Position numbers and translations under genes: made by a program
Sequence record: OR062947.1
Source of the DNA: Escherichia phage 348Ecol098PP
DNA length: 64,000 bases
Direction: 5' to 3' (one strand)
Shown: positions 19,162-38,656 of the stretch, piece after piece
Layout: every line of letters starts with the position of its first letter
Position numbering within the stretch: position 1 is the stretch's first letter
The notes under the pieces: generated by a model
Database searches by the model: none
Told to the model about the DNA's origin: nothing
Seen by the model: the letters and a program-made list of their open reading frames with translations, nothing else

Positions 19162-19476
19162 ATGAAAACGTATAAAGAATTTATTGCAGAATCCGCCAAC
19201 CAACGCGTTGAAGGTGGTTATATTTGGATTGAACAAGTTGAGCCACCGAGCCGCACTTCTACAGGTAAATGGAAAATTACTGTTGACGGTCCTGGCGGTA
19301 AACGTAGGACTCTTAAAGAAATTAATGGGTACTATGAAGAAGCTCTTTCGGATGCAGGAACTTACATGATGCAAATCATGATTAAAAACCCTGAAAACCG
19401 TTTTGCAGCTAAAGTCTTCCGTCGTATTGGTAATAAACTTTATGATGCATACTCTAAAAACTTCCCTAAAGAATAA
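19162..19476 (+). CDS. internal-protein-like protein with CTS (ipIII-like)
   Basis: Starts MKTYKEFIAE. Confidence 0.7.
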   Translation: MKTYKEFIAESANQRVEGGYIWIEQVEPPSRTSTGKWKITVDGPGGKRRTLKEINGYYEEALSDAGTYMMQIMIKNPENRFAAKVFRRIGNKLYDAYSKNFPKE

Positions 19477-19501
19477 CATAAATTAAAACAATAGGAACAA
19501 A

Positions 19502-19831
19502 ATGAAAACATATCAGGAGTTTATCACTGAAGTTACATTATCTGCGGAACAGAAAGCTGCTATCGAAGAAGGTAAAAATCCCAAAGTAACATATAAAGTA
19601 AATAGTAAAGGCGTTTTTGATGGCTTGGTTCAAGACCCTGAATTGAAAAAAGTTCTTTCTAAAACTAATGCGTACTTTGCTCCTAAATTTAACACAGCCG
19701 GTGTACTTATTGGATTGGATGTATTCAACTCTAAAGGTGTTCTATCTAATGCCTTTGGTTATGCCGCTAACAAAATTACCAAAGCCGCATGGGAATCCAA
19801 TACTAAACAAGCTCAAAAGCCTAGAGTATAA
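19502..19831 (+). CDS. internal-protein-like protein with CTS (ipIII-like)
   Basis: Starts MKTYQEFITE. Confidence 0.7.
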   Translation: MKTYQEFITEVTLSAEQKAAIEEGKNPKVTYKVNSKGVFDGLVQDPELKKVLSKTNAYFAPKFNTAGVLIGLDVFNSKGVLSNAFGYAANKITKAAWESNTKQAQKPRV

Positions 19832-20003
19832 TTCTTGCCTAATAAAGGGAAACGCAACCTCTCCTTATGAACGTCGAGTCCTCTAAGTGATGTACCTTTT
19901 CCAACCTGTAATAAGGTCGAGCGCAATGCGGTAATGGGTTTACATAGCGAGTCGAAGGACCTAACATGTGCCATGGAATGGCCCAAACCTTAAGAGAAAT
20001 AAT

Positions 20004-20543
20004 ATGAGAACATTTTTAACTGGTCCTTATCTATCCCTGATGAATGCTTTTACACACCATTCTGATGCTAGAGTAGAAGAAATTTGTAAGAATGGTTATG
20101 TCCCACCATTTGAAGACGTACTCAAGCAGTACTGTACACTTCGTTTAGACGGTGGCAGACAATCAGGTAAATCAACCGCAATAACTAATTTTGCTGTTAA
20201 TTGGCTGTATGATGGTGGAACAGTTATTGTTCTTTCTAATACTTCAGCTTATGCTAAAATTTCTGCTGGCAACATTAAAAAAGAATTTTCTCGTTATTCT
20301 AGCGATGATATTCGATTCCGTTTATTTACTGATTCTGTTCGTAGTTTTATTGGCAATGAAGGTTCTAAATTCCGTGGATTAACGCTTTCTCGTATTCTGT
20401 ATATAATTGACGAGCCTATTAAAGCTCCTGATATGGATAAGATTTACAATGTCCACATTAAAACAGTACAGCACTGCTGCAAAAGCAAATATTGCATCGG
20501 CGGTAATGCTCGTCCTCAATTTTTTGTGATTGGAATGCAATGA
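20004..20543 (+). CDS. P-loop NTPase-like protein
   Basis: Walker A-like GGRQSGKST. Confidence 0.55.
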   Translation: MRTFLTGPYLSLMNAFTHHSDARVEEICKNGYVPPFEDVLKQYCTLRLDGGRQSGKSTAITNFAVNWLYDGGTVIVLSNTSAYAKISAGNIKKEFSRYSSDDIRFRLFTDSVRSFIGNEGSKFRGLTLSRILYIIDEPIKAPDMDKIYNVHIKTVQHCCKSKYCIGGNARPQFFVIGMQ

Positions 20544-20848
20544 TGACCACTATTGAAGTTTTTGAGTATTGTTATAACAGCCCAGTATGCAATAAAAGGG
20601 CTCTTGTAGAAAATTATGAGATTTACCATTTTAAACCTAAACGATATCGTTTGACTAAAGGTCCGTTCGCAGGGCAGCAGGTTCTTTGTACTGCTCCTAA
20701 TGCACGGTTGATGACTAGTATTCCGCATTTCAAAATGGAATTTATTGATGGGCCATTTAAGGGATTAATCACTCAAAGTTTAATGGCGTTTAATTCCGAC
20801 CCATTTTTGATTAAAGAACAATCTTGGATAAATTTATTTTCTAATTGA
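20540..20848 (+). CDS. hypothetical protein
   Basis: ATGA overlap. Confidence 0.55.
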   Translation: MMTTIEVFEYCYNSPVCNKRALVENYEIYHFKPKRYRLTKGPFAGQQVLCTAPNARLMTSIPHFKMEFIDGPFKGLITQSLMAFNSDPFLIKEQSWINLFSN

Positions 20849-20854
20849 GGTTAT

Positions 20855-21217
20855 ATGAAAGCATATCAAATTCTTGAAGGTGCACATAAAGGCACTATTT
20901 ATTTTGAAGACGGTACTCAAGCCCGGATTATTGTCTCTAAGACTTTTAAAGAAGACTCTATTGTAGACCCGGAAATTTTCTATGGTTTGAATGCCCGTGA
21001 AATTGAAATTGAACATCAACCTAAAGTTAAAATTGAAGGTGGTCAACATCTGAACGTTAACGTTCTGCGTCGTGAAACTCTAGAAGATGCAGTTAAGCAT
21101 CCGGAAAAATATCCGCAGCTGACCATCCGTGTATCCGGTTATGCAGTTCGCTTTAACTCTCTGACTCCAGAACAGCAGCGCGACGTTATCGCTCGTACCT
21201 TTACTGAGAGTCTATAA
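20855..21217 (+). CDS. autonomous glycyl radical cofactor (GrcA/YfiD-like)
   Basis: C-terminus [25 protein letters not shown] = glycyl-radical signature of the PFL C-terminus / GrcA. Confidence 0.8.
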
Positions 21218-21441
21218 TGGCTAAATTGATTATAGAAGGGTCTGAAGATGTTTTAAAATGTTTTGCCGCCTGGTTTAGTTGCTCAGGCGAGCAATCATTC
21301 ATTGAAGCATTTAGAACGGGTGATATTACTGGAAAATATCCGTCAACCGATATCACTGTACGCGGATATGGTATTAATGAGCCTATCCAATTGGTCGAAT
21401 ATGACCTTGCCACCGATGAGGAAATTCCTTATGTCGATTGA
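21217..21441 (+). CDS. hypothetical protein
   Basis: 74-aa ORF. Confidence 0.5.
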   Translation: MAKLIIEGSEDVLKCFAAWFSCSGEQSFIEAFRTGDITGKYPSTDITVRGYGINEPIQLVEYDLATDEEIPYVD

Positions 21442-21697
21442 AGACATCAAAGGCTACAAGCCGCATACCGATGATAAAATCAGTAAAGTGAACGCTATTA
21501 AAGACGCAGAAGTCCGTCTTGGATTGTTGTTTGATGCTCTGATTGAAGAAGCATATATCTTGAAAGAAAACGAAACAGAGCAACAAACCAAAGAAGATAT
21601 GGATGCAGTGCAGGCTCTTAAGTATGCTAAGCAACATCTAAAAGAAGCCAGCATGTGGGCATGTCGTGCGGTATTTCGACCTGAGGAAAAATACTAA
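21431..21697 (+). CDS. hypothetical protein
   Basis: Internal ATG (MSIEDIKGY) overlapping upstream stop. Confidence 0.5.
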   Translation: MSIEDIKGYKPHTDDKISKVNAIKDAEVRLGLLFDALIEEAYILKENETEQQTKEDMDAVQALKYAKQHLKEASMWACRAVFRPEEKY

Positions 21698-21912
21698 TGG
21701 CTTCTACTATTACTGGGTTATTGGACTTTCAAGAAAAGGTCAACAAAATTTGTAGTGAATACTTAAAGTATCTTGAAGAAGACCTTGAAGATTGTAAGGA
21801 AGAAGGCGAAGAAGACTATGCTGACCAGCGTCGTCGCCAAATCGAAGAGATGAGGCATTTCGCCAATATGGTATCTAAAGAATCTTGGGCTTTAACTCCA
21901 TTTTATCAATAA
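21697..21912 (+). CDS. hypothetical acidic protein
   Basis: 71-aa ORF. Confidence 0.5.
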   Translation: MASTITGLLDFQEKVNKICSEYLKYLEEDLEDCKEEGEEDYADQRRRQIEEMRHFANMVSKESWALTPFYQ

Positions 21913-21917
21913 AGTAG

Positions 21918-21965
21918 TTTACTTCTCCTCTAGTTGTGTTACTATAGACCTGTCAACTAGAGGAG
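21918..21965 (+). promoter_or_regulatory. early promoter in 12-bp perfect inverted repeat (PeSL)
   Basis: GTTTAC; ctcctctagttg / caactagaggag; 3-prime arm carries SD of regB. Confidence 0.55.
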
Positions 21966-21973
21966 AAATCAAA

Positions 21974-22432
21974 ATGACTATCAATTCAGACGTTTTTATC
22001 CGCCGTAATAAACTCCGTCGAATCTTTGAAACGGAGTTCCGCAAAATAAATGCCGGTATAAAAGATGCTGCAAAGTCTCTTGGACTACCAGGCTTTCATA
22101 TCAAGTATTCTCAACATCTCTTAGATCGTGCCATCCAGAGAGAAATAGATGAGAATTACGTTTTTGAATTATTTCATAAAGTAAAAAATCATGTTAAAGA
22201 AGTTGCAGAATTTTTATCAATGCCGGCACGTCCAGATGTTGATGAAGATTTTGTCGAAGGTGTCGAATATCGCCCAGGCCGTTTAGAAATAACTGATGGA
22301 AATCTTTGGTTAGGACTTACAGTTTGTCGCGAAAATCCAGCATTCAAAATGAAGACTCTTCAATGCAGAATGGCTATTATTAACAGTAAACGACTACCAG
22401 GAAAAGCTTCTAAAGCAGTGATTAAAATCTAG
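21974..22432 (+). CDS. regB: endoribonuclease RegB
   Basis: MTINSDVFIRRNKLRR...HLLDRAIQREIDENYVFELFHK...RLPGKASKAVIK, recalled T4 RegB. Confidence 0.8.
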   Translation: MTINSDVFIRRNKLRRIFETEFRKINAGIKDAAKSLGLPGFHIKYSQHLLDRAIQREIDENYVFELFHKVKNHVKEVAEFLSMPARPDVDEDFVEGVEYRPGRLEITDGNLWLGLTVCRENPAFKMKTLQCRMAIINSKRLPGKASKAVIKI

Positions 22433-22440
22433 AGGTAAAC

Positions 22441-22983
22441 ATGAGAAAAGCACTACTCGCTGGTCTATTTGCTCTTTCGTTATCAGCACATAGCTCCGAG
22501 CATACTTTTAGTAATGTCCAACTCGATAACTTGAATTATGCTTATCAGTTTGGGGAACAGTTTTCTAAGGACGGAAAATTTAAAACGCATGAAAATATGC
22601 ATAAGAAAGGACTTGGATACATAATGGCCGCAATACTATGGCAAGAATCATCTGCCGGTATTAATCTTAAAGATAAGAAAGGTCACCATGCGTATGGAAT
22701 GTTCCAAAACTATCTACCGTCAATGAGGGCAAGAATTAACCAGCTTGGTTATAATATGACTGATGCCCAAATTAAGAAAATGCTATCTAAGCGGTCTAAT
22801 TCAGCCAGATGGGCTTATATCGAATTTTCTTATTGGTTAAATATACATAATGGGGATATAAGAAAAGCTATATCCTCATATAATGCGGGATGGAAGACAA
22901 GTGCTGGAAGTAAATATGCTTCTGAAGTCCTAGAAAAGGCTAATTACCTTAAATCAAATAAACTACTGGAAATAAAAGAATGA
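22441..22983 (+). CDS. secreted lytic transglycosylase (SLT domain)
   Basis: Signal peptide; SLT motifs E-S (WQESS), G-hMQ (YGMFQ), AYNAG-like (SYNAGW). Confidence 0.65.
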   Translation: MRKALLAGLFALSLSAHSSEHTFSNVQLDNLNYAYQFGEQFSKDGKFKTHENMHKKGLGYIMAAILWQESSAGINLKDKKGHHAYGMFQNYLPSMRARINQLGYNMTDAQIKKMLSKRSNSARWAYIEFSYWLNIHNGDIRKAISSYNAGWKTSAGSKYASEVLEKANYLKSNKLLEIKE

Positions 22984-23327
22984 CCAAAATGTTGGCTTTA
23001 ATAGTTGGCTTGGTTTCATTTAACGCTCTTGCTAATACTACATATACTGATGTAACGGAGTATACAAACAGAACGGCGTCTGATTATTGTGGTAAAAGTC
23101 AAGAGTGTAAAGTAGATTTTTCACAAAAATTGTTATATGCGTATAAAGACGGAGAAAAAGATGGGGCGTCTAGTAGGTTCAAGGCGTCTACCTTAATTAA
23201 AAGATACTATAAAAAATGGCAAATATTAGAATGCTCGGTGGCGGAACCTAAAGATAAGGCAGCATGCAATTCTATGGTGGACCGTCTAGTTGACTCTTAT
23301 ACTAGAGGACTTGCAGCAAGTGATTAA
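22980..23327 (+). CDS. secreted/periplasmic hypothetical protein
   Basis: N-terminal signal peptide MTKMLALIVGLVSFNALA. Confidence 0.55.
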   Translation: MTKMLALIVGLVSFNALANTTYTDVTEYTNRTASDYCGKSQECKVDFSQKLLYAYKDGEKDGASSRFKASTLIKRYYKKWQILECSVAEPKDKAACNSMVDRLVDSYTRGLAASD

Positions 23328-23784
23328 AAACTATATCAAGGGCGATATTGTCGCCCTGTTTTCTAAAGGTAATAATATTGCTCATGGGTGTAATTGTTTT
23401 CATACAATGGGCGCTGGTGTGGCAGGACAATTAGCAAAGGCTTATCCAAAAATTCTGGAAGCCGATAAACTTCAAACCGAATTCGGAGACGAGTCTAAAC
23501 TCGGGACTTATTCGGTTTATGAAAAATATTTTAAGACCCATAAAGCTTATTGCTTTAATCTTTATACACAGTTTGAGCCGGGACCTAATTTTGAGTACTC
23601 TGCTTTAATGAATTGTATAATAGAATTAAATGAATTCGGAAAGAATAAGATAACAAAGCCTGTAATTTATATGCCAAGAATTGGTGCAGGTATTGGTGGT
23701 GGAAACTGGGACGTCATCGAAGAGATTTTAGATACGTATTCTACTAAACTAGAAATTGTGATTGTTGATTGGGAACCTAAATGA
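23320..23784 (+). CDS. macro-domain protein (ADP-ribose binding/processing)
   Basis: Macro-domain-like motifs NIAHGCN ... GAGVAGQL; no in-frame ATG, start placed at GTG 23320 after SD (uncertain). Confidence 0.6.
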   Translation: MIKNYIKGDIVALFSKGNNIAHGCNCFHTMGAGVAGQLAKAYPKILEADKLQTEFGDESKLGTYSVYEKYFKTHKAYCFNLYTQFEPGPNFEYSALMNCIIELNEFGKNKITKPVIYMPRIGAGIGGGNWDVIEEILDTYSTKLEIVIVDWEPK

Positions 23785-23963
23785 AATTAACTAAAGAAGA
23801 GAAAGCTAAACTGTTCGAACTTATCCATGACCTATTGGATGAGCAAGCAGCCACCAATGCGTACGATGAATATGCTCCTTTAACAGATGAAGAATATCAA
23901 GCATTGATGGAATCATTTGACAGGAAAGAACAAGAACTCATTGACTACGTGAATTCACTATAA
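23781..23963 (+). CDS. hypothetical acidic protein
   Basis: 60-aa ORF. Confidence 0.45.
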   Translation: MKLTKEEKAKLFELIHDLLDEQAATNAYDEYAPLTDEEYQALMESFDRKEQELIDYVNSL

Positions 23964-23972
23964 GGGACTCTT

Positions 23973-24554
23973 ATGGCTAGTTTAATTTTTACATATGCCG
24001 CTATGAACGCTGGTAAGTCTGCTTCATTACTTACTGCCGCACATAACTATAAAGAACGTGGCATGGGTGTATTAGTTCTTAAACCGGCTATTGATACTCG
24101 TGATTCAAAGGGTGAAATAGTCTCTCGTATTGGTATTCGTCAGGATGCCAATATAATTACAAAAGACATGGATATCTTTGAATTCTATAAATGGGCTGCA
24201 GCACAAAAGGATATTCACTGCGTATTTGTTGACGAAGCTCAGTTCTTAACTACTGAAAAGGTGTATCAACTTAGTCGTATTGTTGACGTATACAATGTGC
24301 CAGTAATGGCATATGGACTACGAACAGATTTTAAAGGTAATCTATTTGAAGGTTCTCAAGCATTAATGGCTATTGCCGATAAGCTTGTTGAACTTAAAGG
24401 TGTCTGTCATTGTGGTAAAAAGGCCACAATGGTAGCTAGAGTCACGGAAGATGGACTTCCAATTACAGATGGCAGTCAAATTGAAATTGGTGATACCGAT
24501 AGATATGTGTCATTATGCCGGAAGCATTGGAATGATTTGACAGGGTTGTTATAA
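23973..24554 (+). CDS. tk: thymidine kinase
   Basis: P-loop AAMNAGKS, TK zinc-ribbon CHCGKKAT...LCRKHW. Confidence 0.9.
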   Translation: MASLIFTYAAMNAGKSASLLTAAHNYKERGMGVLVLKPAIDTRDSKGEIVSRIGIRQDANIITKDMDIFEFYKWAAAQKDIHCVFVDEAQFLTTEKVYQLSRIVDVYNVPVMAYGLRTDFKGNLFEGSQALMAIADKLVELKGVCHCGKKATMVARVTEDGLPITDGSQIEIGDTDRYVSLCRKHWNDLTGLL

Positions 24555-35089: not shown

Positions 35090-35563
35090 ATGTTATTATC
35101 AGGCGCAAAATATAAAGAAGAAAAACAAAAATTTTATGATGCACAGAATGGTAAGTGTCCTATTTGCCACCGTGAATTAGACCCTGATGTTCAAGGTAAC
35201 CATCTTGACCACGACCATGAATTAAACGGGCCAAAAGCAGGTAGAGTTCGTGGGTTACTCTGTAATCTGTGCAATGCAGCAGAAGGTCAAATGAAGCATA
35301 AGTTCAACCGTTCCGGTCTTAAAAGACGTGATGTCGACTACCTCGAATGGCTTGAAGCTCTTCTTGCTTATTTGAAACAAGATTATTCTGATAATAATAT
35401 CCATCCTAATTTTGTTCCAGACAAAACTAAAGAGTTCTCAAGACTAGGTAAAGAGGAAATGATGTCCGAGATGCTTCAAAGAGGATTTGAATATAATGAA
35501 TCTGATACCAAAACACAATTAATAGCTTCATTCAAAAAGCAGCTTAGAAAGAGTTTAAAATGA
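35090..35563 (+). CDS. 49: endonuclease VII (Holliday junction resolvase) gp49
   Basis: 157 aa; CxxC...HLDHDHELNGPKAG...CNLCN zinc/H-N-H-like motifs; recalled T4 gp49. Confidence 0.9.
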   Translation: MLLSGAKYKEEKQKFYDAQNGKCPICHRELDPDVQGNHLDHDHELNGPKAGRVRGLLCNLCNAAEGQMKHKFNRSGLKRRDVDYLEWLEALLAYLKQDYSDNNIHPNFVPDKTKEFSRLGKEEMMSEMLQRGFEYNESDTKTQLIASFKKQLRKSLK

Positions 35564-36381
35564 ATGTAGTATATAAACTATCATTTATTAATAGAATTAA
35601 TGCTAAAACCCCACCATATTATTACATTGGAAGTAAAACCAATTGCACTTTTGATGGAACGAATATTATTGATAAAAATGGTAAATTTTATTATTCGTCT
35701 TCGTCATCTTCCGAATTTCAAAAAGCCTTATTGAAAGAAACGCCGAAAGTTGAAATATTATATTTTCAATTAGTCGGAGATGAACAAATAACTAGCATTG
35801 AAGCTGAATTTCAAAAGAATATAGAAAAAGATGTATGGAATAAAGAGTATTTTAATTTAGCATATGCTGATGGCAAATTTACGACATATGGTATTTCTCC
35901 TTCTAAAGAAACTAGAGAAAAACAATCAATAACCATGATTAAAAGAAATCGTAATAAAGGCAAAAATCATGGATTTTATGGAAAGCATCATACTAATTTA
36001 GCCAGAAAGAAAATATCAGAAGCTTCTAAAAAATACTGGAAAGAAAATCCGCATCGTGGATTTTCGCATACAAAGGAAGCTAAAATTAAAATTGGAATTT
36101 CATCTTCTATCAGGCATAAAGGAAGTGGAAATCCGATGTATGGTGTAAAACCTTGGAAAACTCCGAACGCAATTAAATCTGGTACTTGTATATTATGGTT
36201 AAAATACGCAGAAATTTTATATGATTATTTAGGTCCAGATTTTAAAAGTAAATCATCTATTTTTGCGGATTTAAACTTACCGAAATTTAGAATTGATAAT
36301 TTCATCAAAAGGTTTAAAATGGGTTGGAACCCATATTTAGACGAAGAATTTCAAAAGGATAAATTAGAATTATGTCTTTAG
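35560..36381 (+). CDS. GIY-YIG homing endonuclease (Seg / I-TevI-like) with NUMOD3-like repeats
   Basis: VYKLSFINRIN...YYYIGSKTN GIY-YIG motif; repeated GxxHxxExKxKIS motifs; strongly AT-rich. Confidence 0.75.
   Translation: MNVVYKLSFINRINAKTPPYYYIGSKTNCTFDGTNIIDKNGKFYYSSSSSSEFQKALLKETPKVEILYFQLVGDEQITSIEAEFQKNIEKDVWNKEYFNLAYADGKFTTYGISPSKETREKQSITMIKRNRNKGKNHGFYGKHHTNLARKKISEASKKYWKENPHRGFSHTKEAKIKIGISSSIRHKGSGNPMYGVKPWKTPNAIKSGTCILWLKYAEILYDYLGPDFKSKSSIFADLNLPKFRIDNFIKRFKMGWNPYLDEEFQKDKLELCL
35560..36381 (+). mobile_element. free-standing homing endonuclease gene between gene 49 and nrdD
   Basis: Same as CDS; composition differs from flanking genes. Confidence 0.6.
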
Positions 36382-38189
36382 AGAAAGATGTTTTAAATTT
36401 TATTTCAAATAAAGATAAAGAATTAAATACCGAAAACGCCAACAAAGATTCTCGTGTCTTTCCAACAAAAAGAGATTTAATGGCCGGTATTGTTTCTAAA
36501 CATATCGCTTGTCGTATTCTTCCAAGTCATATTGTAAATGCCCATAATGTTGGATTAATTCATTTTCATGATTTAGATTACAGTATATCATTGCCTTTTA
36601 CTAATTGCTGTTTAGTAGATTTAAAAGGAATGCTTGAGAATGGATTTAAATTAGGCAATGCTCAAATTGAAACGCCTAAATCGATTGGTGTTGCTACTGC
36701 AATTATGGCACAAATTACTGCACAAGTTGCTTCTCACCAGTATGGCGGAACTACATTTGCGAATGTAGATAAAGTACTTTCTCCTTATGTTAAACGCACA
36801 TATGCAAAACATATTGAGGATGCAGAAAAATGGCAAATCGCTGATGCGTTGAATTATGCTCAATCTAAAACAGAAAAAGATGTCTATGACGCATTTCAAG
36901 CTTATGAGTATGAAGTAAATACTCTCTTTAGTTCAAACGGACAAACGCCTTTTGTAACAATTACATTTGGTACGGGAACTGACTGGACTGAACGAATGAT
37001 TCAGAAAGCAATTTTGAAAAATCGTATTAAAGGTCTTGGTCGTGATGGGATAACTCCTATTTTCCCTAAGCTTGTTATGTTCGTTGAAGAAGGTGTTAAT
37101 CTTTATAAAGATGATCCGAACTATGATATTAAACAGCTTGCTCTAGAGTGCGCAAGCAAAAGAATGTATCCTGACATTATTTCGGTTAAGAATAATAAAG
37201 CTATTATCGGTTCTTCAGTTCCTGTTTCTCCAATGGGCTGCCGTAGTTTCTTGAGTGTATGGAAAGATTCGACTGGCAATGAAATTCTTGATGGACGTAA
37301 TAATCTTGGTGTTGTAACACTGAATCTTCCTCGTATCGCATTAGATTCTTATATTGGAACCCAGTTCAATGAACAGAAATTTGTTGAATTATTCAATGAA
37401 CGAATGGATTTATGTTTTGAAGCATTGATGTGCAGAATTAGTTCCTTAAAAGGAGTTAAAGCGACTGTTGCTCCTATTCTTTACCAAGAAGGTGCATTCG
37501 GGGTTCGTCTTAAACCTGATGACGATATAATTGAGTTATTTAAAAACGGTAGAAGTTCAGTGTCTTTGGGATACATTGGTATTCACGAATTGAATATTCT
37601 TGTCGGTCGTGATATTGGACAAGAAATTTTAACTAAAATGAATGCTCATCTTAAACAGTGGACTGAAAGAACCGGATTTGCTTTTAGTTTATATTCTACT
37701 CCTGCTGAAAACCTTTGTTATCGCTTCTGTAAACTTGATACAGAAAAATATGGAAGCGTAAAAGATGTTACCGATAAAGGTTGGTACACTAACAGTTTCC
37801 ACGTTTCAGTAGAAGAAAATATTACTCCGTTTGAAAAGATTTCTCGTGAAGCGCCGTATCATTTCATTGCGACAGGCGGTCACATTTCTTATGTTGAACT
37901 TCCAGATATGAAAAACAATTTAAAGGGACTTGAGGCTGTCTGGGATTATGCTGCACAACATTTAGATTATTTTGGTGTTAATATGCCAGTAGATAAATGT
38001 TTTACATGCGGAAGTACCCATGAAATGACTCCTACTGAAAACGGATTTGTTTGTTCAGTTTGCGGAGAAACTGATCCTAAAAAGATGAACACCATAAGAA
38101 GAACATGCGGTTATTTGGGAAATCCGAACGAACGCGGATTTAATCTCGGTAAAAATAAAGAAATCATGCATAGGGTTAAACACCAATGA
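36372..38189 (+). CDS. nrdD: anaerobic ribonucleoside-triphosphate reductase NrdD
   Basis: 605 aa; C-terminal glycyl radical motif RTCGYLG and Zn-Cys cluster; uninterrupted. Confidence 0.9.
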   Translation: MSLEKDVLNFISNKDKELNTENANKDSRVFPTKRDLMAGIVSKHIACRILPSHIVNAHNVGLIHFHDLDYSISLPFTNCCLVDLKGMLENGFKLGNAQIETPKSIGVATAIMAQITAQVASHQYGGTTFANVDKVLSPYVKRTYAKHIEDAEKWQIADALNYAQSKTEKDVYDAFQAYEYEVNTLFSSNGQTPFVTITFGTGTDWTERMIQKAILKNRIKGLGRDGITPIFPKLVMFVEEGVNLYKDDPNYDIKQLALECASKRMYPDIISVKNNKAIIGSSVPVSPMGCRSFLSVWKDSTGNEILDGRNNLGVVTLNLPRIALDSYIGTQFNEQKFVELFNERMDLCFEALMCRISSLKGVKATVAPILYQEGAFGVRLKPDDDIIELFKNGRSSVSLGYIGIHELNILVGRDIGQEILTKMNAHLKQWTERTGFAFSLYSTPAENLCYRFCKLDTEKYGSVKDVTDKGWYTNSFHVSVEENITPFEKISREAPYHFIATGGHISYVELPDMKNNLKGLEAVWDYAAQHLDYFGVNMPVDKCFTCGSTHEMTPTENGFVCSVCGETDPKKMNTIRRTCGYLGNPNERGFNLGKNKEIMHRVKHQ

Positions 38190-38656
38190 ATTATGATAGA
38201 TTTTATCCTTGCGATTTTGTGAATGGCCCTGGTTGCAGGGTCGTTCTTTTCGTTACAGGTTGTTTGCATAAATGCGAAGGGTGTTATAATAAATCAACAT
38301 GGAATGCTAGAAATGGTATTCCATTCACCGGAGAGACACTAGAACAATTAATTGAATGTTTGAATAATGATTATATAGAAGGATTGACTATAACCGGAGG
38401 TGACCCTCTCTATCCTGACAACCGAGATGTTGTTCATTGCATCGTTCAAACAGTAAAAAATCTTTATCCCAATAAAAGCATTTGGTTGTGGACAGGATAT
38501 AAGTTTGAAGATATTAAACAACTAGAAATGCTTAAATATGTTGATGTTATTATTGATGGGAAGTATGAGAAAAATCTTCCGACTAAAAAGCTGTGGCGAG
38601 GATCAGATAATCAGCGACTTTGGTCAAATACCGATGGGGTGTGGAAACATGATTAA
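38186..38656 (+). CDS. nrdG: anaerobic RNR activating enzyme NrdG (radical SAM)
   Basis: CLHKCEGCYN = CxxxCxxC. Confidence 0.85.
   Translation: MNYDRFYPCDFVNGPGCRVVLFVTGCLHKCEGCYNKSTWNARNGIPFTGETLEQLIECLNNDYIEGLTITGGDPLYPDNRDVVHCIVQTVKNLYPNKSIWLWTGYKFEDIKQLEMLKYVDVIIDGKYEKNLPTKKLWRGSDNQRLWSNTDGVWKHD

Follow-up and report, generated by a model that had tools for sequence, protein, structure and literature searches.

Small phage proteins that resemble the glycyl-radical domain of a host enzyme raise the questions of which enzyme they serve during infection and how the phage came by them. The gene considered here is vs.6 (or grcA, for autonomous glycyl radical cofactor), an ATG-initiated ORF of 120 aa located at positions 20855–21217 on the + strand of the 64-kb stretch of phage DNA that was analysed as a whole (referred to as the window). 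Neither the gene nor its function is new (RefSeq annotates it as GrcA in T4, RB69 and numerous relatives), and the analysis below therefore concerns how well that function fits this copy, and the unusual composition of its DNA.

Genomic setting and identity of the vs.6 product

The 2.5 kb surrounding vs.6 displayed 98–99% nucleotide identity to many RB69-like E. coli phages (Mosigvirus), and judged by its sequence the window is that of an RB69-like Mosigvirus, i.e., a T-even phage. The RB69 gene order (denV ... vs.8, vs.7, vs.6, vs.5, vs.4, regB, vs.1, vs, tk) recurs in T4, and the ORF was recognised as vs.6 by its position between vs.7 and vs.5 in the denV–regB interval, together with its high amino acid identity to the RB69 (99%) and T4 (94%) copies, both of which bear the RefSeq name “autonomous glycyl radical cofactor GrcA”. 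The T4 gene is its positional orthologue, also encoding 120 aa (with ca. 93% identity at the nucleotide level), flanked by the same genes (vs.8 and vs.7 on one side; vs.5, vs.4 and regB on the other) and equally containing an E. coli-like 3′ tract. The two proteins differ at seven residues, six of which are N-terminal (and with His73 in T4 vs. Arg73 in the window), and, unlike the T4 copy, the one in the window stems from a Mosigvirus and is known here from its sequence.

A GAGG Shine-Dalgarno sequence (20847–20850, +) could be read 4 nt before the ATG, overlapping the TGA stop codon of vs.7 (20846–20848). At the other end of the gene, the stop codon of vs.6 and the start codon of vs.5 (21217–21441) overlap within the pentanucleotide TAATG (21215–21219, +; from the sequence and the RB69 annotation), which suggests translational coupling of these two genes. 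Given these overlaps at both ends (i.e., with the vs.7 stop and the vs.5 ATG), vs.6 belongs to a cluster of closely spaced genes that run in one direction. Scanning positions 19400–22600 for promoters and terminators was uninformative, with 9 promoter-like sites vs. 10.1 expected from shuffled sequences, and with the terminator-like matches falling inside coding sequence. Further upstream in the same cluster, vs.8 (19968–20543, +) encodes a P-loop-like GGRQSGKST and weakly matches the ATPase region of the terminase large subunit (phrog_2, E = 9.9e-6), while its own family (phrog_1488) has no assigned function in PHROGs.

The preliminary description of this locus had proposed a GrcA/YfiD-like protein, and library searches bore this out. 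The vs.6 protein matched the Pfam family Gly_radical (PF01228; E = 2.2e-18, 67.2 bits vs. a cutoff of 22.2), its best NCBIfam match was the GrcA model TIGR04365 (E = 8.9e-47, residues 18–120), and its best PDB match was 6owr, the NMR structure of E. coli GrcA/YfiD entitled “Autonomous glycyl radical cofactor” (E = 1.5e-42, residues 21–120). The structure of pyruvate formate-lyase (PFL; 1h16) was matched as well (E = 2.8e-26), with residues 57–120 of vs.6 facing residues 696–759 of PFL, and the full-length formate-lyase models of NCBIfam covered just the last ~60 residues. Those last 60 residues proved 100% identical to E. coli GrcA upon alignment, and the similarity between both proteins is far beyond chance. 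The C-terminal glycyl-radical motif quoted in the preliminary description occurs letter for letter at residues 92–116, and the critical glycine is retained in the alignment with E. coli GrcA that had been put forward as a check: Gly95 (codon GGT, 21137–21139, +), the predicted radical site, aligns with Gly102 of E. coli GrcA and corresponds to Gly734 of PFL (numbering of both taken from PMC12338860).

Nevertheless, the whole-protein score of vs.6 on TIGR04365 (158.5 bits) stays below the curated equivalog cutoff of 170, because its N-terminal half is divergent. Residues 1–60 alone yielded 13.2 bits on this model, vs. 89 bits for the E. coli half. This N-terminal half is weakly GrcA-like, being collinear with residues 28–67 of E. 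coli GrcA (35% identity over 40 aa; E = 2e-6 in a pairwise BLASTP, but only 0.083 against the whole library), and it contains one sequence motif of 22 residues common to T4-like phages. The underlying 5′ half of the gene (residues 1–59; 20855–21032, +) exhibits a dN/dS of ~0.13 between the window and T4, and by these sequence measures is old, phage-specific and under purifying selection.

In other respects vs.6 has the hallmarks of GrcA, being a small standalone protein (of the ~120–130 aa class) with its own RBS and stop codon, and with the radical glycine in a C-terminal RVSGYAV motif. It also has the GrcA/YfiD layout of a variable N-terminal half followed by a structured radical domain, of which the C-terminal 60 residues including the radical glycine are the same. 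It differs from the E. coli protein in being 7 residues shorter, in its N-terminal half (~35% identical), and in being phage-encoded within a phage gene cluster. NrdD-type proteins, on the other hand, carry an RxCGY motif next to a Zn-ribbon cysteine cluster, vs. RVSGYAV and no cysteines in the domain of vs.6. The C-terminal domain of PflB (1h16/2pfl) and of TdcE offers the same fold element and radical motif, but vs.6 is not an enzyme, and has neither the 10-stranded barrel nor the Cys418/Cys419 active site. Finally, GrcA2 and GrcA3 (NF008341 and NF038360) have the radical domain in common with vs.6, which scores 106.6 and 94.5 bits on these models (i.e., below their cutoffs of 158 and 145), but they measure only ~78–80 aa and are devoid of an N-terminal half. 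Taken together, the sequence evidence supports the assignment of vs.6 as a standalone GrcA/YfiD-type glycyl-radical protein.

Proposed role during infection and relation to nrdD and nrdG

The preliminary description also mentioned a T4 counterpart named Y06I, and such a protein has indeed been described: as cited by Andorfer et al. 2021 (PMC8683613), Wagner et al. 2001 (BBRC 285:456, from Knappe's group) found T4 Y06I to be activated by PFL-activating enzyme (PFL-AE, or PflA). In the account given by the former paper, YfiD and T4 Y06I are ~14-kDa “spare part” proteins that bind O2-cleaved PFL and restore its activity after radical installation, and these two alone are presented as validated. 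Y06I is taken to be T4 vs.6, the latter being the gene to which RefSeq gives the name GrcA in T4. By transfer from this T4 orthologue and from E. coli GrcA, we consider it highly probable (roughly 0.9) that the vs.6 examined here likewise acts as a phage GrcA repairing O2-damaged host PFL. The radical domain displays a dN of 0 and a dS of 0.15 relative to E. coli, and vs.6 is under strong purifying selection. No vs.6 mutant phenotype was found in the searchable literature.

During micro-oxic infection, or infection under fluctuating O2, oxygen would cleave the active PFL of the host at its Gly734 radical, after which the cleaved enzyme would be bound by the vs.6 protein. Host PflA would then put a radical on Gly95, and the C-terminal domain of vs.6 (equal in sequence to that of host GrcA) would replace the lost C-terminus of PFL, thereby restoring the reaction turning pyruvate into acetyl-CoA plus formate. 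The likely benefits to the phage would be that fermentative production of ATP and acetyl-CoA is kept going, and that formate is supplied to its NrdD1-type class III ribonucleotide reductase. Infection by T-even (T4-like) phages shuts off host gene expression, so that a phage-expressed copy of GrcA would keep PFL repairable under fluctuating O2 rather than being redundant. As to the activase, none for PFL was present in the window, where NrdG reached 52 bits on the PflA model vs. a cutoff of 232, and activation must hence depend on the PflA of the host, as it did in the work on T4.

The host's possession of its own grcA, next to which a plain duplicate seems redundant, could also be read differently, i.e., vs.6 might be a decoy or modulator that competes with host GrcA or PFL for PflA, or occupies PFL, and so redirects fermentation, or that serves formate-lyases such as TdcE. 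The divergence of the N-terminal half, just ~35% identical to that of host GrcA, would fit such a role, since it is the N-terminal half that governs recognition of cPFL and the efficiency of activation in YfiD (PMC8683613). More specifically, the N-terminal 60 residues of YfiD are disordered and dispensable for catalysis (residues 61–127 constituting the structured radical domain), yet raise cPFL binding and radical installation about four-fold (PMC8683613). As this half matters for cPFL binding and activation, and is divergent in the phage, the phage protein may differ from YfiD in degree. However, T4 Y06I is described as reconstituting PFL activity in vitro (PMC8683613), and the catalytic half of vs.6 has been kept identical to that of the host, a pattern expected of a working part and not of an inhibitor. 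Moreover, the redundancy argument is weakened by the host shut-off mentioned above, and we deem a decoy improbable.

Even less credible is that vs.6 would serve the phage's own NrdD as a spare part or accessory, a role that was suggested from their shared Gly_radical Pfam match (PMC1524935) and that might draw on the presence of nrdD and nrdG in the same window. The former gene (36372–38189, +) encodes the anaerobic ribonucleoside-triphosphate reductase (NF006732, 895 bits vs. a cutoff of 657; TIGR02487, 565 bits), and the latter (38186–38656, +) the radical-SAM activase of NrdD (TIGR02491, 198 bits vs. a cutoff of 126). In two more distant T4-like phages, Krischvirus FL38 (locus L088, 292–708) and Aeromonas phage AsFcp_2 (locus L091, 301–678), moreover, the GrcA homologue directly adjoins nrdC/nrdH redoxin genes, which could be taken in the same sense. 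Against this, BLASTP between vs.6 and the NrdD of the window detected no similarity at the radical site, the best hit lying elsewhere at E = 5.7, and the C-terminus of this NrdD (CSVCG...RRTCGYLG) presents RRTCGYLG where vs.6 has RVSGYAVRF. The radical domain of vs.6 is instead 100% identical to that of GrcA and ~80% identical to the C-terminus of PFL, and T4 Y06I is reported to work with PFL and PFL-AE (PMC8683613). A role of vs.6 as a spare part for NrdD was therefore rejected on sequence, and the lack of similarity to the NrdD radical site also argues against a direct part in nucleotide reduction.

These results bear on the “glycyl-radical toolkit” that the preliminary description saw in vs.6, nrdD and nrdG. 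The presence of nrdD and nrdG in the window holds, both scoring above their equivalog cutoffs, but they lie 15 kb downstream of vs.6 on the same strand, and given this distance the three genes do not form one operon, nor does vs.6 resemble the NrdD site. As for the gut and the anaerobic growth that were offered as a rationale, these are conditions that one may infer rather than read from the locus. With PFL repair as the preferred function, the connection of vs.6 to nrdD and nrdG is plausibly metabolic and not physical, since PFL makes formate and formate is the reductant of NrdD: in the class III reductase of E. coli, formate acts as hydrogen donor (Mulliez et al. 1995, listed in PMC13450708), and T4 NrdD is classed, like the E. 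coli enzyme, in subtype NrdD1 (PMC4493059). In these terms, vs.6 would be a textbook auxiliary metabolic gene, sustaining the anaerobic energy metabolism of the host and probably also the formate supply of phage NrdD.

Two further observations concern the nrdD region. The nrdD gene of the window is a single uninterrupted ORF of 605 aa that overlaps nrdG by 4 nt; T4 nrdD (sunY) is split by a group I intron, and an intron of this type appears to be lacking here. Directly upstream of nrdD, two ORFs of 157 aa and 273 aa (35090–36381, +) gave no NCBIfam match at E ≤ 1e-5.

A host-like DNA tract in the radical-domain half

At the DNA level, vs.6 is a mosaic. Compared to E. coli grcA, the first 178 nt (i.e., the phage-lineage 5′ half) are 45.5% identical, which is close to random similarity, vs. 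96.7% for the other 182 aligned nt (codons 60–120). A maximum chi-square analysis placed the breakpoint between 21032 and 21033, and none of 2000 permutations reached the observed value. The resulting E. coli grcA-like tract spans 175 nt (21033–21207, +), encodes residues 60–117 of the radical domain, and is a putative host-to-phage gene-conversion patch. Among ten Tequatrovirus/Mosigvirus genes, this tract was 98–100% identical to E. coli grcA, with 0–3 nt differences that were mostly singletons (0 in phage wV7) and with the tract sequences arranged star-like around the host allele. In the last 10 nt of the same ten genes, differences were shared along phage lineages, which positions the right junction at ~21205–21208. 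Moreover, when the 64-kb window was compared by megablast to 5,426 complete E. coli genomes, nothing but this tract matched, and the local GC content of the tract (0.45–0.48) exceeded that nearby (about 0.35).

Over the last 60 codons, the dS to E. coli amounted to 0.146 for the window, 0.094 for RB69 and 0.046 for T4, while the grcA genes of Citrobacter amalonaticus and Salmonella are at a dS of 0.36 and ~1.0 from E. coli, respectively. Since the phage values are below those of Citrobacter and Salmonella, the phage block nests inside the genus Escherichia. In other phage lineages, the 3′ block has 63–83% DNA identity to E. coli, and at best 68–90% to any of 81 sampled bacterial grcA genes.

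Several other origins of this near-identity were considered. Protein constraint or codon bias was rejected as its cause, since Cronobacter phage GAP161 encodes the same 60 aa with 31 synonymous differences (dS ~2), and since enterobacterial grcA genes themselves have diverged from E. coli to a dS of 0.36–1.0. Host pflB was rejected as the source, since its DNA identity is 79% (vs. 97% for grcA) and since the N-terminal half of vs.6 is weakly GrcA-like. Transfer from phage to host is unlikely as well, because the block is carried by all 5,426 E. coli genomes, and because, compared to Citrobacter (88.6% in the 5′ part and 92.9% in the 3′ part) or Salmonella (84.6% and 84.2%), E. coli grcA is free of a 5′/3′ break. 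This continuity makes host-to-phage the parsimonious direction, and the tract is probably the product of a recent gene conversion in which the radical-domain half passed from host to phage. The idea that vs.6 as a whole is a recently acquired, neutral passenger fragment of host grcA or pflB, to which the tract might lend itself as the sole host-like DNA in the window (98–100% identical to E. coli grcA), is the least believable of the alternatives, given the full-length ORF with its own RBS, the old and phage-specific 5′ half with a dN/dS of ~0.13, a donor that is grcA (97%) and not pflB (79%), and the occurrence of the gene in all T4-like genomes compared by Nolan et al. 2006 (PMC1524935) and in 1,588 phage records.

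The first residue of the tract is the counterpart of position 67 of YfiD, and the tract closely coincides with the structured domain that would have to dock into host PFL and be recognised by host PflA. The mosaic thus combines a sharp junction with a nearby NMR-defined domain boundary, and could serve to tell, as a natural experiment, which of the two GrcA halves has to be an exact match to the host.

The genes around vs.6 (20540–24554) have a dS between the window and T4 of 1.19 (vs.7), 2.4 (vs.4), 1.8 (regB), 0.94 (vs.1) and 1.28 (tk), values that approach or surpass synonymous saturation. Within vs.6 the corresponding dS was 0.36 for the 5′ half and 0.07 for the tract, the latter being lower than that of the pooled neighbours (Fisher p = 7e-13) and than that of its own 5′ half (p = 0.015). 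An exchange of the vs.6 cassette between Mosigvirus and Tequatrovirus thus seems to postdate the divergence of its flanks, with the tract being younger still. Both a single conversion that was spread by phage–phage recombination and repeated conversions from E. coli are compatible with the ten genes. Tentatively, and with the odds somewhat against it, in T-even phages of E. coli the part of vs.6 encoding the radical domain might be kept in step with the host by recent, possibly recurrent conversion from grcA, while the N-terminal half would follow a course of its own as an adaptor specific to the phage. If true, this would offer a clean and datable case of a strictly lytic, host-DNA-degrading phage that uses a host gene as a template for repairing or updating an auxiliary metabolic gene.

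No description of a DNA-level mosaic in vs.6 was found in the searchable papers (a set to which the 2001 Wagner study, Bowman 2019 (PMC6754787) and the 2003 T4 review (PMC150520) do not belong), and the observation may be unreported. As a traceable recombination event from host to lytic phage, the mosaic leaves the identity of the gene unchanged and is an evolutionary footnote to a known gene, yet one that deserves population-level analysis.

A possibly comparable pattern was noticed outside the E. coli phages. In Klebsiella phage KpV477 (Jiaodavirus; locus L084, 301–663), the 3′ block has a GC3 of 0.59, which is unusually high for a T4-like phage, and its best match (89.6%) was to the grcA gene of an Enterobacterales MAG (L040), among sampled loci that do not include K. 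pneumoniae grcA. This may point to a separate patch of host origin in Klebsiella phages.

Distribution and naming of the vs.6 family

Homologues of vs.6 were retrieved by tblastn from 1,588 phage records, including Tequatrovirus, Mosigvirus, T4-like phages of Klebsiella, Enterobacter and Cronobacter, T5-like Tequintavirus, jumbo phages and Aeromonas phages. Nolan et al. 2006 had already listed vs.6 among the few ORFs of unknown function that were present in every T4-like genome compared, and noted its Gly_radical match (PMC1524935). In T5-like phages (loci L089 and L090) the GrcA homologue is located beside tRNA genes, and together with the redoxin neighbours in FL38 and AsFcp_2 this variety indicates that the position of the gene is not conserved outside the T-even core.

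The naming of the family is uneven. The PHROGs family phrog_1209 matches the vs.6 protein over its full length (5.6e-63), yet is labelled “unknown function”, and GenBank phage records variously call the product a hypothetical protein, pyruvate formate-lyase, 2-ketobutyrate formate-lyase or acetyltransferase. The PHROGs label and these inconsistent GenBank names together constitute an annotation gap for the vs.6 family.
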